From a virus: a stretch of DNA of 10,027 bases. The position numbers and the translations under genes were made by a program. Below are positions 202-6,963 of the stretch, piece after piece. The stretch lies in the UHGV virus genome UHGV-0373029, one strand, 5' to 3'. Numbering within the stretch: the first letter of the stretch is position 1; each line of letters starts with the position of its first letter. The notes beneath the pieces were generated by a model, which saw nothing but the letters and a program-made list of their open reading frames with translations, did not search any database and had not been told where the DNA came from.

Positions 202-666
202 ATGCAAGTTTCGGAAGGTAAACAAGAAGTGTCTATCACAACAAAATTACAGCAGTTAGATAATTATTCCAAAAGTAATTATTCAGCTATTCGTGATTTA
301 CAGTCTGATATGAGGCTGCTTCAGCTAGGGATGGAGAACCAGAAAGTCCAGTTAGAGAATGTTAAGGGTGAGAACGCAAAACTTACTAAGACTCTTGATA
401 AATTCTCTGATAGTGTGAACAATCTGGCTCAATCAGTATCAGCCCTCCAAGCTATTACTGAAAAGAACACAAAGAATACTGAAAAAGCTTTTTCTAAGTT
501 ATCTACGAACTCATCATCAATAGGTGTATCTGTCTTACTTGCGAGATATCTTGCAAGCCTAAAGAACACTTTCTCAATCATGTATTCACTTAGAAGGGAT
601 AAAATGAGTTTCCAGAAGAAGCTACCTAGATTTTTTAGAAGAATTGCTAGGATTGTAGGCATTTAA
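202..666 (+). CDS. Hypothetical protein: N-terminal coiled-coil-like region, C-terminal hydrophobic segment and basic tail
   Basis: 154-codon ORF, very unlikely by chance in AT-rich DNA. Residues 1-100 are Q/L/K/E/N-rich with heptad-like spacing, then a hydrophobic stretch IGVSVLLARYLASL and a basic tail RRDKMSFQKKLPRFFRRIARIVGI. Weak point: no Shine-Dalgarno at useful spacing before ATG 202 (AAGGAG lies 18 nt upstream, inside the hairpin). A 77-aa antisense ORF overlaps it. Confidence 0.5.
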   Translation: MQVSEGKQEVSITTKLQQLDNYSKSNYSAIRDLQSDMRLLQLGMENQKVQLENVKGENAKLTKTLDKFSDSVNNLAQSVSALQAITEKNTKNTEKAFSKLSTNSSSIGVSVLLARYLASLKNTFSIMYSLRRDKMSFQKKLPRFFRRIARIVGI

Positions 667-741: not shown

Positions 742-3111
742 TTAAGCAGTCCTTACCCAAGCCATTAACTTGTAGAACTGGTTAGTGACGCTAAATGCTG
801 AACCAGAACCAGTACCACCTGTGTTACCGCTAACTGTGTGGCTGTGAGCACCAATACCAACAGTGTGCGAGTGGTTGCCAGTTGTGTTGGTTACACCTGT
901 CCAAGTTCTTGACGCGTGGAAATCAGCAGCAGCACCGTAAGTGAAGTTAGAGCCTGTGAAGCCATGTGAAGCCTGAGAACTACCCATCTGAAACGCACCG
1001 CTCGCAGTGTAGAATGCACTGTTATCACTTCTGAACCAACCAACCACACCAGAAATTTCCATGTTACCTCTATTGTGAGCATGGTTGCCAGTCGTATTTG
1101 TCGTCTTAGTACCATAATCAAATGATGAAGTGGTAGCAGAGAAACTATGCGTGTGTGAAGGTAAGTTACCAACAGATAACGTTACAGAATCTGAACCACC
1201 AGTTGTAGCAACATCTGAACCGTTTGCTGCTGCAATTCTAATAGTTCTGCCAACACCATTATTCAGGTACGTCCAAGTTAGACCAGGAAGTGCTGTATTA
1301 GGGTTAACATTACTGTTAAACCACGTTACAATACCTACTGGATAGATTTTATTCAGGTCTGTAGAGTCACTAATTGCTTCTGCAATCTTCTGGTCAGTCT
1401 CTGCTTTAGTGTATGCACCAATTTCTGAAGGGGTTGGTTTATCTTGGTCTGTATAGATTTTAGCCCAAGCATTCTCAAAACCATACTTATCTCGTGCTGT
1501 CCTGTAAAAAATACCACCATTCTTGTAGATAAACTTAAACTGTGCAGTTGGTGTTGAGCCACCACCGATAAACATCTGATAAACTAGTTGTGATGCACCC
1601 CCAGTTTTCATTGTAACATTATACAGACCAGTTCTAGCATTCCAAGCAATACCATCCTCATCACCAACCTCTGTACCACCGCCAGAAGAGACAGCAAGCA
1701 TGTACCTAGAGTTTGCGACAGATTGCGTATAATATCTGGCATCTAAGTTAGAGAAATCAGAAGGTTGAATCTGTCCAGCTAGAGTTAGTGTTTTGTTGAT
1801 ACTTGCAGATGAGTTACCTAAAACTAACTGAGTTCCAGAAAAACTGTTATTTAGGGTTACATCATTAGTATCTGCCCCACCAACACCCACCCACCATCTT
1901 GATACATTAGCAGTGTCCATACCACGGATATACAATGGTCTGTTCTGAGTAGAGTTTTTCACAATTAGAGTTTCATCATCTGCAACAATTTTCTGTACAC
2001 CATTAAAAGTGTTTTGTGCATTAGTTCTTGCAATCGTACTTAATGTTGCTGCCGGAATATATCTAGAGTCAATGTTAGCCCAATCTGAAGGTTGAACTTG
2101 ACCACCAATTTGAACTGTTTTACTCATAGTAATGGTGTTACCTAGTGAGATTTGTGTTTTTGCTAGATAGTTATAGATGTTTACAATGTTTTCATCACCA
2201 TCGTTACCAATGTACCACTTATTAGCCCCATCTGATTTTCTTGCTTGGATATACAAAGCCGCAGTTGTGTCTACATTTTGCAGAGTGATGGCATTAGCAT
2301 TCTTCTTAATAACAAAATTAGTGAAGGTATTAGAGCCACTAAAAGTGTTATTACCAGTTAACTGTGCAAATCTCTGATTAGCAACTGTCTGAGTAAAGTA
2401 TCTAGCATCTAAGTTAGAGAAATCTGAAGGTTGGACTTGACCAGTGATTCTAAGTGACTTATTAAATGCTGCTGTTGCATCAAGGGTTAACATTGCACCA
2501 GTAGCATGATTGTACAAATATACATTAGTACTGTTTGCATTTCCCTGTCCAACATACCAAGTTTGCTGGTTATTAGAATCTCTGCCTTGAATATATGAAG
2601 CACCTGCATTGGTTGCCTTCTTAAGAGTTAACTGCTCACCATCAGTTACAATTGCTTGCCTAATGCTGAAGTTATTTGTGACAGCAAGCCTTGCATATCT
2701 TGCATCATTCTCTTCATTAGTTCTCATACCAAGTTCATTAGGGCTTGGTTTATTCAAAGTATGATAAACAGTTGCCGACCTTGTGGCATCTGCAATAGTG
2801 AGTTTAAGACCATTTGAGTTAATTTTAAAAGTCTTTAAAACATCCCCAATAGTAATCTCAGAAGAATCTGTAGGGTCAAAGATGGCCTTACCACCGTAAA
2901 GTAACTTGACAATACCTAAATCCCCAACCATAGTACTACCAGCAATCTGAACAAACCTTTCTAGTTTGAAGGAAGCTAAGAAGTCTTGATACGTCATTCT
3001 ACGGTCTTCATCACCCAGCATTTCAGGTCTTTTCTTAACTCTGATGTGTAATAGGTCTTCTGAACGAATTGTGTCGATTGAGTTTAATTGACTCAATTTG
3101 TAATCTGCCAT
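742..3111 (-). CDS. Long tail fibre protein (P2 gpH-like shaft with three ~110-aa repeats; collar-like C-terminal tip with HxH motifs)
   Basis: 789-aa ORF. Three internal repeats carry GQ(V/I)QPSD(F/W)(S/A)N(L/I)D(A/S)RY at residues 224-238, 337-351 and 447-461. C-terminal ~200 aa has a collar-like motif (YPVGIVTWFNSN...SVTLSVGNLPSHTHS), then a Gly/Ser/Thr-rich region with HTH, HAH, HSH, HSH and a ...AWVRTA end shared with the 391-aa fibre. SD-like AAGAGGA precedes the ATG. Confidence 0.9.
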   Translation of the reverse strand: MADYKLSQLNSIDTIRSEDLLHIRVKKRPEMLGDEDRRMTYQDFLASFKLERFVQIAGSTMVGDLGIVKLLYGGKAIFDPTDSSEITIGDVLKTFKINSNGLKLTIADATRSATVYHTLNKPSPNELGMRTNEENDARYARLAVTNNFSIRQAIVTDGEQLTLKKATNAGASYIQGRDSNNQQTWYVGQGNANSTNVYLYNHATGAMLTLDATAAFNKSLRITGQVQPSDFSNLDARYFTQTVANQRFAQLTGNNTFSGSNTFTNFVIKKNANAITLQNVDTTAALYIQARKSDGANKWYIGNDGDENIVNIYNYLAKTQISLGNTITMSKTVQIGGQVQPSDWANIDSRYIPAATLSTIARTNAQNTFNGVQKIVADDETLIVKNSTQNRPLYIRGMDTANVSRWWVGVGGADTNDVTLNNSFSGTQLVLGNSSASINKTLTLAGQIQPSDFSNLDARYYTQSVANSRYMLAVSSGGGTEVGDEDGIAWNARTGLYNVTMKTGGASQLVYQMFIGGGSTPTAQFKFIYKNGGIFYRTARDKYGFENAWAKIYTDQDKPTPSEIGAYTKAETDQKIAEAISDSTDLNKIYPVGIVTWFNSNVNPNTALPGLTWTYLNNGVGRTIRIAAANGSDVATTGGSDSVTLSVGNLPSHTHSFSATTSSFDYGTKTTNTTGNHAHNRGNMEISGVVGWFRSDNSAFYTASGAFQMGSSQASHGFTGSNFTYGAAADFHASRTWTGVTNTTGNHSHTVGIGAHSHTVSGNTGGTGSGSAFSVTNQFYKLMAWVRTA
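1702..2598 (-). repeat. Three in-frame tandem repeat units (~330 bp each) inside the long tail-fibre gene
   Basis: Protein repeats at residues ~172-470. At DNA level, 1733-1790 and 2399-2456 share near-identical stretches (e.g. ATCTAAGTTAGAGAAATC then GAAGGTTG); the middle copy around 2071-2115 is more diverged (CAATCTGAAGGTTGAACTTGACCACC). Confidence 0.8.
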
Positions 3112-3157: not shown

Positions 3158-4333
3158 TTAAGCTGTTCTCTGCCATACATATACGACAAAAGATGGCTGC
3201 TCAACACTGAAAGCTTGACCACCACCAACAGAACCAGATGTTCCTGAGTGTGTATGTTCAGAGCTAGAGACAGTAACAGCACCCGTATGACTGTGTGAAC
3301 CAATATTAACAGTGTGGCTATGAGCACCAATTGCAACAGTATGGTTATGAGCACCAGATGATGCAGTTGTGCCTGAGAAGCTATGGGTGTGAGCACCTGC
3401 TAAATCAGTATACGTATTATTATTAACCCCAGCATAAGCAGATGCAGTAATAGCATCCCCCCCACTTCTATCATTACCTCTCAGTGGTACTCTATGGTTA
3501 TGGTTACCATCATTACTTGTCGTGCCGCTAAACGTGTGAGTGTGAGCACCAGCACTATTAGTCGTTTTTGTACCGTAATCAAAAGTTGATGTACTTTTTG
3601 AACCATAATCAAAACTAGAGATAGATACGCTTGCAGAGTGTGTGTGACCACCACCTGTTAAATAGATAGAGTGGGTGTGTGCTGGTAAATTATTATTTGT
3701 TAATGCTACAGTCTGAGAACCGAACGTTGAACCAACAGGTCTAGCTTCTGTATCATAACCAACAAGCGCCCTACCTTTAGAAACCAACTCCCAAGTACCT
3801 CCACAAAGCAAGTAAGTGGATGGGTTAGCAGAGTTAACAGACAGATGAATAGTCCCCACTGGATATGATGCTTGGATAGCTTTGTATAGATTATTCACTG
3901 CTCTCGCGGTAGCATATTTATCAGCATCTTCATTGTATAAGTTGGATGTTGTCCAGTTCTGAACATTACTTAACCCTACCTGTGCTTTCGTTGTATTGTG
4001 TGGGTTACTTTTGTCGTCGATATGTCTCTGAATTAAACTGTTCACTTCATCTGACGACATAATCTGTAGATTTGCTCTTGCCTCAGCAACATCTACAATG
4101 TCTGACAAGTTATTAGCTGCGACCAATTGGAGTGAGTTAATAACATTATCAAGACCAACTTGCGATTTAGTTACACCATGAGGGTTATTCCTCAAAGATG
4201 TGTGAGGTGCTAACAACTGTTCAAGCGTACATCTTTTATCCTCAACACCTTGCTTAAGATGGAAGATATCACTCAAATCAATTGGTAAGGCCGCTTGTGG
4301 CAAGGCACTAATTTGAATTTCACCTACTGCCAT
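3158..4333 (-). CDS. Tail fibre / receptor-binding protein (two phage fibre repeats, collar-like domain, His-x-His-rich tip)
   Basis: 391-aa ORF with SD AGGAG 8 nt before the ATG. Two copies of NPH(G/N)(V/T)TK(S/A)QVGL(D/S)NV (residues ~50-64 and ~110-124). Collar-like motif YPVGTIHLSVNS...LLCGGTWELV...SQTVALTNNNLPAHTHS. C-terminal 180 aa is Gly/Ser/Thr-rich with nine HxH motifs and the SFDYG(S/T)K(S/T)T motif twice, ending ...VWQRTA. Confidence 0.9.
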   Translation of the reverse strand: MAVGEIQISALPQAALPIDLSDIFHLKQGVEDKRCTLEQLLAPHTSLRNNPHGVTKSQVGLDNVINSLQLVAANNLSDIVDVAEARANLQIMSSDEVNSLIQRHIDDKSNPHNTTKAQVGLSNVQNWTTSNLYNEDADKYATARAVNNLYKAIQASYPVGTIHLSVNSANPSTYLLCGGTWELVSKGRALVGYDTEARPVGSTFGSQTVALTNNNLPAHTHSIYLTGGGHTHSASVSISSFDYGSKSTSTFDYGTKTTNSAGAHTHTFSGTTSNDGNHNHRVPLRGNDRSGGDAITASAYAGVNNNTYTDLAGAHTHSFSGTTASSGAHNHTVAIGAHSHTVNIGSHSHTGAVTVSSSEHTHSGTSGSVGGGQAFSVEQPSFVVYVWQRTA

Positions 4334-5494: not shown

Positions 5495-6963
5495 TTACTC
5501 CTTAGTGATGGTATACTGGCTACTTTCCCAAACAGTATATTGGTCACCGTCAACAGTAATTCTTCCTGTAGTATATTGTCCGTCACTAGGTGGAACTGAT
5601 TGACTGTTTGATAATGCTACTTTGACTTCATTAATCTCAATACCTTTAATTACGTCATAGATATGTCCATAGATTCTGTTAGGGATAACATCATTACCAA
5701 CCTTAAGAGTTCTTCCGTAGGCATTAATACCTTGTACAATACTGTCTCTGATATCCTCTTCAGGGATTGTCAAGCTTTCTTCATCATATAGTGAGTAAGA
5801 CACCTTAACAAATGCGTATTTTGGTGTTGGTCTGCTGAAATAAATATTATGTGCCAAACCACCTAAATCGTGGGCTGTACCAAAAATTGAGCCATAAGCC
5901 CTAATACCAGCAGGCTTTGTATCCCAGATTGCCTGAGCTACATTATCATTTTGACCACCAACTACAACAATCTTAAAAGATTTTGGTGGAAGACCTTCTG
6001 AGTTTGTCTCTTCAGTATCATTTTCAACACCTGAAGCATCTGAGACACCTTGAACTCTTTTAACAGCAGCTACAATTGCATCCAAAGTTCCTACACCAGT
6101 AACTGCTAAGGACTCTAAATATCTCTGTCTAAGTTCTGTGTCAGTTTCTTCATTTCTACCAGTTGTTAAGTCATACCTGTTATAAATACTGTCAAGACCA
6201 TCAACAGTTGTCTCAATCTCAATAAGTGTACCAGCCAAAGCAGGGGTAGCACCCACCTCTTCAGCTACTACATCTGAAATAGTTGTAATTTTTGTAAAGG
6301 TCAGAAATGTTGTCGCAGTGACAACCATAGGGTTTGTTCTGGCAATGATATCACCCTCATCTTTATAGACTCTCAATGATGCTCCATCATTAATGACTTC
6401 TGCCTTTGCTACAATACCACCATTAATAGCTTCTGCTAATTTTGTTAGAAGTGTGGTGATTGTGTCTGATGAGGTTGGTTTATATGAGAAAATGACGTTA
6501 TCAATAATAATAACATAATCTGCATCAGTTCGTAAAGAGTTAACTTCAAGGACAGCTTCAACACAATATGATGGGGTTAGGGTAATGTTGTTAACTGGAT
6601 AAAAGATATTTCCGGCAGTACTTCTTAATCTTGTTGTTGAAGGAATGGTAGCACCAGTCGTTCCAGTAAACTCTACCTGACCTCTTGTTGCCTGAGCAAC
6701 ATATCTATATACAGCATTTAAAGCTGTAATATCATCAAGGTTAAAGCCTTCGGCCTTGTCAATTGTTCCACCGTCATAGACTTCTGATAGAATCTCATGG
6801 GTATCTGCTAAAGACCTTGCAATTGAAGCTAGGAAGAGTCCTAATTGACTATCTTCAGAAACGTCAAGGTTTGGTGAAATATCTCTAAGAAGTCTTGATT
6901 TGATATTATCAAAAATCTCCTGATATCTTAGAGTTTGTAATCCTGTTGTAGTTAGTCCTGCCA

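Follow-up and report, generated by a model that had tools for sequence, protein, structure and literature searches.

The long tail fibre of Escherichia phage JohannRWettstein (Bas63), the product of gp27, has been solved by cryo-EM (Sci Adv 2025; PMC12609058). A 630 Å fibre, repeated beta domains joined by helix-turn connectors, and domains that resemble the pyramid domain of T7 gp17 have been described (PMC12609058, PMC11821841), and the Bas63 fibre ends in a receptor-binding tip with HxH repeats (PMC12609058). The repeat number is invariant within the genus according to the same paper, which offers tolerance of missense changes in the cores as its first possible explanation for the variability of the rod, followed by lateral contact with the host and by recognition of the rod as a target of phage defence (PMC12609058). 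The gp53 protein of Shigella phage Sf14 has likewise been compared to the T7 gp17 pyramid domain (PMC11821841).

Here, we analysed a fibre gene in a 10,027-nt stretch of the virus genome UHGV-0373029, which we refer to as the window. The product of the minus-strand ORF 742-3111 belongs, by full-length similarity to phrog_4277, to the Felixounavirus long tail fibres (780 profile positions covering residues 1-789; E = 0, 1370.6 bits in a profile search). The fibre region is 94-98% identical to Felixounavirus genomes at the nucleotide level, and the 120 closest homologues of the protein show 71-100% identity at a query coverage of 60-100%. A comparison of the window ORFs with the annotated phages VSe102, PHB11, DE17, JN01 and Bas63 showed that the gene order is kept (baseplate wedge genes, short fibre, long fibre, small-protein and holin genes, and thymidylate synthase). 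Bas63 gp27, the orthologue at the same genomic position, shares the gp37_C domain, the HxH tip and, at matching coordinates, the three PF20744 units, but in the unit cores the two fibres have just 38-55% identity. An earlier annotation, made from the letters alone (the sequence-only reading), had described a shaft repeat in a long fibre, which agrees with the orthology to gp27, where the repeated beta domains make up the rod. The layout of the gene is as follows.

742-3111, minus strand: long tail fibre gene, 789 aa (orthologue of Bas63 gp27 and the Felix O1 tail fibre)
2698-3111, minus strand: N-terminal baseplate-binding region, aa 1-138, conserved and outside the sequence repeat
2371-2697, minus strand: repeat unit 1, aa 139-247, delimited by the unit-HMM envelope (PF20744 E = 2.6e-24, 85.5 bits)
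2032-2370, minus strand: repeat unit 2, aa 248-360 (PF20744 E = 2.1e-14, 53.8 bits)
1705-2031, minus strand: repeat unit 3, aa 361-469 (PF20744 E = 1.3e-32, 112.1 bits)
1360-1686, minus strand: PF12604 gp37_C domain, aa 476-584 (Pfam E = 1.2e-19)
745-1353, minus strand: receptor-binding tip with HxH repeats, aa 587-789 (T4 gp37 needle-like; Gp10_C)

The N-terminal region is 91% identical to that of Bas63 gp27 and approximately 90-100% identical to relatives at the nucleotide level, and alignment against shuffles revealed no similarity between this region and the repeat units (z about 1). The gp37_C domain resembles the tail fibre S' of phage Mu (8ju3, E = 1.3e-23), and the tip matches 2xgf (E = 1.4e-5), whereas its Gp10_C match is weak and lies under the curated cut-off. 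In pairwise local alignments against shuffles, no part of the remaining fibre protein matched the units.

The three in-frame tandem units of the sequence-only reading were confirmed, with inter-unit local alignment scores of 152-246 compared to 31-32 ± 5-6 in shuffles (z = 20-40). Self-BLASTP of the fibre returned the diagonal only, and pairwise local alignments with shuffles were used instead. The array had been placed at 1702-2598; it spans 1705-2697, with unit 1 beginning approximately 100 nt past position 2598. GQ(V/I)QPSD is present in every unit, as had been noted, starting at aa 224, 337 and 446. The accompanying YIQ(G/A)R segment occurs at aa 173, 287 and 394, but the third copy reads YIRGM, so that the consensus has to be widened to YI(Q/R)(G/A)(R/M). 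Units 1 and 3 share 48% of their amino acids, units 1 and 2 share 35%, and units 2 and 3 share 32%; unit 2 is the most divergent copy and carries a 5-aa insertion. Nucleotide identity over whole units is 51-55%, and identity at codon third positions is 37-43%, which is close to random. Because synonymous sites between the copies are saturated, the triplication must be ancient.

In the whole protein, PF20744 (gp37_trimer) was found three times (E = 5.2e-69, 228.8 bits; gathering threshold 21.7), and each isolated unit spans the model nearly end to end with 54-112 bits, compared to the cut-off of 21.7. By this profile similarity, each unit corresponds to one PF20744 copy, and each would fold as a trimer. 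Among the best 150 matches to the unit profile, 114 have one copy and 24 have two, and at least three tandem copies occur only in Ounavirinae-like long fibres among these 150 listed matches. A profile of all three units matched 4a0t (E = 1.1e-6) and 7boz (T7 gp17 residues 372-441; E = 1.6e-6) in the PDB, and the units are, as judged from such profile matches, related to the pyramid domain of T7 gp17 (4A0T/4A0U, residues about 371-447). In T7 gp17, a single pyramid-domain copy sits beside the tip domain, whereas three copies form a rod in the Felixounavirus fibre. Foldseek comparison of a three-unit monomer model with the PDB found 4a0t/4a0u with a probability of 0.97-1.0, but with E-values of 0.014-0.038 and target TM-scores of 0.34-0.37; nothing was found in the PDB at E ≤ 1e-3, and single-layer sheets of OspA ranked first. 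We count this result as weak support for the T7 gp17 relationship.

The AF2 monomer model is mediocre (mean pLDDT 69.9, pTM 0.32), with pLDDT values of 76-92 in the cores and below 50 in the linkers. It predicts 5-7 strands per unit, followed by short helices at PSDF and ARY (residues 228-231 and 236-238 in unit 1, and equivalent places in units 2 and 3). Beta domains that alternate with short helix-turn connectors, the rod type of T4 gp34, are seen in this model, in agreement with what was described for Bas63 (PMC12609058). The analogy with the gp34 rod is taken from the Bas63 paper (PMC12609058); the PDB matches of the protein (E ≤ 1) and of the unit profile (E ≤ 10) contained no chain of T4 gp34 (5NXH/4UXE). 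Of the five beta domains counted in the Bas63 paper (PMC12609058), only three are repeated in sequence.

The units are separated from one another and from the gp37_C domain by short linkers, two of which share an exact direct repeat.

2341-2445, minus strand: junction J1, aa 223-257, TGQVQPSDFSNLDARYFTQTVANQRFAQLTGNNTF, linker between units 1 and 2, with identity switch points on either side
2017-2103, minus strand: junction J2, aa 337-365, GQVQPSDWANIDSRYIPAATLSTIARTNA, linker between units 2 and 3
1729-1779, minus strand: junction J3, aa 445-461, AGQIQPSDFSNLDARYY, linker between unit 3 and the gp37_C domain
2405-2424, plus strand: J1 copy of the exact 20-nt direct repeat, which encodes DFSNLDA on the minus strand
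1739-1758, plus strand: J3 copy of the exact 20-nt direct repeat

The repeat at the DNA level is confined to the junction motif GQxQPSD(F/W)xN(L/I)D(A/S)RY. The string quoted in the earlier annotation as recurring about 666 bp apart, GCATCTAAGTTAGAGAAATC, is exact at 1739-1758 and 2405-2424 with a spacing of 666 nt. This 20-mer had no match in 200 shuffles, and codon shuffling of the fibre gene (200 shuffles) gave self-matches of at most 15 nt. The closeness of copies 1 and 3 at the nucleotide level therefore holds at the junction (73% over 86 nt, with 20 nt exact) but not over whole units. Third-position identity is 0.64-0.88 at J1 compared to 0.38-0.55 in the cores, and 0.59-0.88 over all junctions compared to 0.26-0.55 in most core blocks. 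Because the synonymous conservation of the junctions is not above that of the conserved N-terminal region, it is by itself no proof of selection on the DNA. Across genomes, the nucleotide identity of J1 to J3 (0.87-0.89) equals that of orthologous J1 copies (0.89). A test for concerted evolution of J1 and J3 within genomes gave an identity of 0.887 for same-genome and 0.866 for different-genome pairs, a gap too small to support gene conversion within a genome. Efficient RecA-type exchange needs approximately 23-27 bp, and the exact J1/J3 match of only 20 nt is at or below this length; in some relatives, exact inter-unit matches reach 43-49 nt.

Exactly three units were found in all 120 of the closest proteins, in Bas63 and in 22 IMG/VR fibre loci. 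In 248 of 257 phage records, among them Felix O1, Moogle, Sf13 and SUSP2, the match to aa 1-480 is a single colinear stretch without any change in length. Syntenic distant relatives on metagenomic contigs, with baseplate proteins that are 65-84% identical to those of the window, have five (L001/P0121) or four units (L032/P0122). Within each of these fibres, the units share only 36-59% identity, so that they are old as well. When the 5-unit P0121 fibre was searched by tblastn in the phage collection, its best full-length matches were 49% identical and no cultured phage carried a comparable fibre over the full length; fibres with four or five units are therefore known from metagenomic contigs alone. 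Copy number has thus changed over long evolutionary time, and the sequence-only reading, which had seen in the direct repeats a means of altering shaft length by recombination, is supported for deep time but not for any ongoing variation. The high nucleotide identity between copies that is expected of a copy-number-variable tandem repeat was not found, and the risk of assembly collapse that had been raised is not credible at 51-55% identity and a longest shared word of 20 nt. Three units are probably kept because the retracted fibre has to match its docking position on the sheath in length.

Among close relatives, it is the version of the unit at each position that varies, as judged from the alignments, and not the number of units. 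Across 126 proteins, we distinguished 33 types of unit, which make up 44 architectures; positions 1, 2 and 3 have about 6, 5 and 5 main types, respectively, and these occur in nearly all combinations. Compared to VSe102, the core of unit 1 in the window is 33-60% identical at the nucleotide level, whereas unit 2 is 87-100% identical; compared to PHB11, aa 1-250 are about 100% identical in the nucleotide profile and the cores of units 2 and 3 are 30-70% identical. In nucleotide alignments, identity switches at aa ~222 and ~257, which flank J1, and likewise at J2 and J3. This clustering of switch points is partly forced: the junctions are conserved in all pairs, so that tracts seem to end there. 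A breakpoint profile based on jumps in protein identity was confounded by conservation, since every border between variable and conserved sequence scores, and it was kept for qualitative use only and superseded by the nucleotide profiles and alignments. Cassettes also occur across positions, as unit 1 of L015 and unit 3 of L025 share 85% of amino acids, 89% of nucleotides and 86% of third positions, and Bas63 unit 1 groups with the position-3 alleles of relatives (66% identity to unit 3 of the window compared to 55% to unit 1). Conserved DNA linkers thus surround deeply diverged segments whose alleles assort independently among relatives, which is the pattern of mosaic exchange. The junction DNA is more likely a crossover site for swapping unit alleles between phages, a role that the sequence-only reading missed.

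We consider it probable that the fibre rod is an ancient, fixed array of three domains whose core cassettes are exchanged at conserved junctions. The rod consists of three tandem beta-rich trimerisation domains of ~110 aa (PF20744), each ending in GQxQPSD(F/W)xN(L/I)D(A/S)RY as a short helix-and-turn connector to the next domain, and the number three is constant in all cultured Ounavirinae that match the fibre region. The junction DNA is as conserved as the genome backbone, from phage to phage and also from one position to another, and the cores in between are deeply diverged alleles. When phages co-infect a cell, homologous recombination in the junctions would exchange their core cassettes, now and then out of register so that a cassette passes between positions 1 and 3, and 4- and 5-unit fibres would be a rare outcome in more distant lineages. 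The data show the repeat and its family, the fixed copy number, the reassorting alleles and the switch points at the junctions, whereas a trimeric fold of each unit, a constraint on fibre length and the use of the junctions as crossover substrate are inferred.

That the direct repeats actively generate shaft-length polymorphism by unequal recombination and endanger assembly is, in our judgement, very improbable. Such polymorphism would fit the exact 20-nt repeat at a distance of 666 nt, the exact inter-unit matches of up to 49 nt in relatives, the existence of 4- and 5-unit orthologues and the near-identical cassettes at positions 1 and 3 of different phages; however, the units are only 51-55% identical in nucleotides, those of the 4- and 5-unit fibres are only 36-59% identical and hence old, and modern assembly cannot collapse on a shared 20-nt word. 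No member of the genus or of the cultured Ounavirinae departs from three units, in agreement with the Bas63 paper (PMC12609058). A vertical structural triplication, in which the cores tolerate missense changes, junction DNA remains similar through amino acid constraint and recombination plays no special role, is unlikely too, if slightly less so. It was proposed for Bas63 (PMC12609058) and accounts for the invariant junction residues and for a junction third-position identity no higher than that of the N-terminal region, but discrete, reassorting allele classes are not expected from gradual mutation. Within single pairwise comparisons, identity drops abruptly from ~100% to 30-60% of nucleotides at unit borders, the unit types occur in nearly all combinations, and one cassette is 89% identical in nucleotides at different positions in two phages.

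Diversifying selection on rod domains that touch the host surface variably or are targets of phage defence might keep many alleles in circulation, which we regard as a possible but doubtful explanation of the variability. Each position has many deeply diverged alleles, next to an N-terminal region and junctions that are ~90-100% identical, and the related regions of the T7 gp17 and Mu S fibres belong to receptor-binding proteins, but the units lie proximal to the canonical receptor-binding tip. Such selection could act alongside cassette exchange and would be a reason for exchange to be favoured. We suggest only tentatively the combined claim that the ~50-105-nt junctions act as recombination sites and that the reassorted alleles are kept by selection through host-surface contact or defence recognition.

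The cassette exchange favoured here resembles what is known from T-even phages. Tétart, Desplats and Krisch (1998, J Mol Biol 282:543) reportedly described mosaicism of the T-even gp37/gp38 adhesins, with recombination between conserved motifs. In both cases, short conserved motifs lie between hypervariable segments and are the apparent places of exchange among related phages. In T-even phages, however, the adhesin itself is exchanged and the linkers are His or Gly-rich boxes, whereas in the window fibre whole rod domains proximal to the tip would be exchanged and the linkers are inter-domain connectors.

For Bas63, the repeat architecture has been published before; the PF20744 domain and its arrangement are known, and the genus is well sampled. 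The Bas63 paper omits recombination, and cassette exchange is a modest addition to the published architecture and a testable alternative to the explanations of rod variability given there. It corrects the expectation of a variable shaft: fibre length is conserved, and the alleles at the three rod positions vary and are probably exchanged at the conserved junctions. Whole-gene fibre identity misleads comparisons of host-range determinants in Felixounavirus, and the junction motifs offer natural in-frame splice points for fibre engineering. If the tentative combination of reassortment and selection holds true, it would account for the variability of beta-helix regions 2-5 that was described as 'unexpected' in Bas63, and the rod, besides the tip, would be a determinant of infection outcome.

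A plus-strand ORF within the repeat (2177-2377, 66 aa) was rejected as spurious, as it is unsupported and antisense to a strongly supported gene. Elsewhere in the window, an inversion lies at 198-486, and the holin region is rearranged relative to the annotated relatives.

The window belongs to a Felix O1-like myophage (Felixounavirus, Ounavirinae) and comprises the baseplate and tail-fibre module; its nucleotide identity to the Escherichia phages KEP1, PHB11, JN01 and others is 94-98%, and 277 phage records matched it in total. Because the 789-aa ORF listed below matches the tail-fibre family phrog_4277 across its entire length and is placed after the baseplate wedge genes and a 391-aa short fibre, the same order as in annotated relatives and in Escherichia phage JohannRWettstein (Bas63), its product is the long tail fibre, orthologous to Bas63 gp27.

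Features of the long tail fibre
742-3111, minus strand: long fibre ORF, 789 aa
2371-2697, minus strand: repeat unit u1, aa 139-247
2032-2370, minus strand: repeat unit u2, aa 248-360
1705-2031, minus strand: repeat unit u3, aa 361-469
aa 476-584, downstream of the units: PF12604 (gp37_C), resembling the phage Mu S' fibre 8ju3 (E = 1.3e-23)
C-terminal to gp37_C: HxH-rich tip, resembling the T4 gp37 needle 2xgf

Local alignment of the units with one another gave scores of 152-246 versus 31-32 ± 5-6 for shuffles (z = 20-40), confirming the in-frame triplication; no other part of the long fibre was similar to the units. The motifs quoted in the sequence-only reading, which rightly spoke of a shaft repeat, are present. 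The span it proposed was 1702-2598, but the array starts at 2697. GQ(V/I)QPSD begins at aa 224, 337 and 446 and YI(Q/R)(G/A)(R/M) at aa 173, 287 and 394; the motif expected in each copy, YIQ(G/A)R, is present, but the third copy reads YIRGM. Amino acid identity is 48% for u1/u3, 35% for u1/u2 and 32% for u2/u3. The supposed closeness of the copies at the nucleotide level holds for the exact 20-mer GCATCTAAGTTAGAGAAATC, which occurs at 1739-1758 and 2405-2424 (spacing of 666 nt; 0 matches in 200 shuffles, and a longest repeat of at most 15 nt in 200 codon-shuffled genes), but not for entire units, which share 51-55% nucleotide identity, the similarity being limited to the junction motif (86 nt at 73% identity). 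Because synonymous sites between units are saturated (third-codon-position identity of 37-43%), the triplication is old. The suggested risk of assembly collapse was not supported.

The whole protein has three Pfam matches to PF20744 (gp37_trimer; E = 5.2e-69) and each isolated unit has one (54-112 bits). A profile built from the three units matched residues 372-441 of T7 gp17 (E about 1e-6), which correspond to the pyramid domain. In an AlphaFold2 monomer model of aa 118-480 (mean pLDDT 69.9; cores 76-92, linkers <50), each unit consists of 5-7 beta strands, after which the PSDF and ARY residues of the conserved motif form short helices. A Foldseek comparison of this model with the PDB gave T7 gp17 at a probability of 0.97-1.0 and E = 0.014, which is weakly supportive, and no match with E <= 1e-3; searches with the protein and the unit profile found no sequence similarity to gp34. 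The Sf14 orthologue has been compared with Mu fibres and with the pyramid of T7 gp17 (PMC11821841), and five beta domains were counted in the Bas63 fibre, with regions 2-5 variable (PMC12609058). Three of these five domains are sequence repeats, and the variable regions fit u1-u3 plus the gp37_C region. The architecture is already described and is built from a known Pfam domain.

Exactly three units were present in 120 of the 120 closest database proteins, in Bas63 and in 22 IMG/VR fibres, and aa 1-480 formed a single colinear match of unchanged length in 248 of 257 phage records, including Felix O1, Moogle, Michonne, Sf13, Sf19 and SUSP2. None of the Felixounavirus and cultured Ounavirinae sequences checked had another number of units, and AlphaFold3 models of all Felixounavirus fibres likewise gave an unvarying repeat number (PMC12609058). 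When the search with the unit profile was widened to 1.84 billion representative proteins, the best 150 matches held one copy in 114 proteins, two in 24, three in 4, four in 1 (P0122) and five in 1 (P0121, whose 1015 aa equal 789 plus two units). P0121 and P0122 are encoded on syntenic Ounavirinae-like metagenomic contigs (L001 and L032, respectively) whose baseplate proteins share 65-84% identity with their counterparts in the window, and the phage collection searched contained no cultured phage closely resembling P0121. Within P0121 and P0122 the units share just 36-59% identity, so these expansions, too, are old. The proposal that unequal recombination changes the shaft length is thus borne out in deep time only, by these four- and five-unit fibres, but not among the close relatives checked, which all have three units.

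The five-unit gene (PF20744) spans 10001-13048 of L001 and the four-unit gene 5911-8706 of L032, where the gene call is 30 codons late, the true start being MAEYNLSQL at about nt 5911. Unit 4 of L001 most resembles an allele found at position 1 in Felixounavirus (VSe102 u1, 64%); for its unit 3 the nearest unit is unit 5, and vice versa (59% aa, 69% nt).

When all units of 126 fibres were clustered at about 65% identity, 33 types resulted, of which about six are common at position 1 and about five each at positions 2 and 3. The types form 44 architectures, and the main types occur in nearly all combinations. Relative to VSe102, the nucleotide identity of the window is about 90% in the N-terminal region, drops to 33-60% in the u1 core and rises again to 87-100% in u2; relative to PHB11, it is about 100% over aa 1-250 and only 30-70% in the u2 and u3 cores. 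In nucleotide alignments, VSe102 and JN01 are diverged from the window as far as aa ~222 and match it almost completely from TGQVQPSD on; in PHB11, DE17 and KEP1 the identical stretch extends to aa ~257 (NNTF), with divergence beyond. Identity switch points flank the u1/u2 junction (J1) on both sides, and explicit alignments gave the same pattern at u2/u3 (J2) and u3/gp37_C (J3), although some clustering of switch points beside conserved blocks is unavoidable. Among 26 non-redundant fibre genes, third-position identity was 0.59-0.88 at the junctions, comparable to the conserved N-terminal region, versus 0.26-0.55 in most core blocks.

Judging from the alleles themselves, cassettes also move between positions: u1 of locus L015 and u3 of locus L025 share 85% amino acid, 89% nucleotide and 86% third-position identity, PHB11 u3 and L010 u1 are 75% and 80% identical, and Bas63 u1 clusters with alleles at position 3 in other relatives. 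The J1-to-J3 nucleotide identity is 0.87-0.89 versus 0.89 for J1-to-J1 across phages, and the exact inter-unit match reaches 43-49 nt in some relatives.

The DNA-level repeat is a conserved inter-domain connector, and its most likely role in evolution is that of a homologous crossover site for swapping rod-domain alleles between related phages. In-register exchange of alleles at the junctions would be the usual case, exchange between positions 1 and 3 an occasional one, and net gain of units rare. In T-even phages, gp37/gp38 adhesin segments are reportedly exchanged between conserved motifs (as attributed to Tétart et al. 1998); segment exchange between conserved motifs would be common to both systems, whereas the exchanged parts here are rod domains and not the adhesin. 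The Bas63 study termed the rod-domain variability unexpected and gave three explanations, with recombination in none (PMC12609058); the pattern of cassette exchange adds a modest, testable new detail.

In a subset of Felixounavirus long fibres (P0029, P0040, P0081, P0085 and others, 848-849 aa; JN01, KEP1), the three units are kept and the gp37_C region is replaced by a longer, unrelated segment (about 60% query coverage, PF12604 match absent), so the region after u3 is an exchangeable module too. The long and short fibre genes also have DNA repeats in common (831-867 and 3280-3343, 76-91% identity), and a tandem 27-nt repeat lies at 3308-3361. The shared repeats code for the GAHSHTV-type HxH motifs in the T4 gp37-like needle tips of both fibres and are possibly another substrate for exchange between these genes.

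Outside the fibre genes, the segment 198-486 has the opposite orientation to that in every relative examined (VSe102, KEP1, DE17 and JN01; 93-98% identity in reverse), with borders near 195-198 and 483-490, the right one at the palindromic AAAAGCTTTT. About 95 nt of the relatives' sequence is absent, comprising holin codons 1-27 (including the hydrophobic segment) and the 3′ end of a 64-aa neighbour gene; holin residues 28-123 are now encoded by part of the plus-strand ORF 202-666, and this small neighbour gene (429-662, minus strand) has a changed C-terminus. Among 286 matching phage records, none covered both borders and none covered at least 80% of 120-600 in one place; the inversion appears to be an assembly error or else a genuine rearrangement that would disrupt the annotated holin. 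A candidate transcription terminator, an inverted repeat with 15-nt arms (87% complementary) and an 11-nt loop, lies at 681-721, just 3′ of the long-fibre stop (742-744, minus strand).
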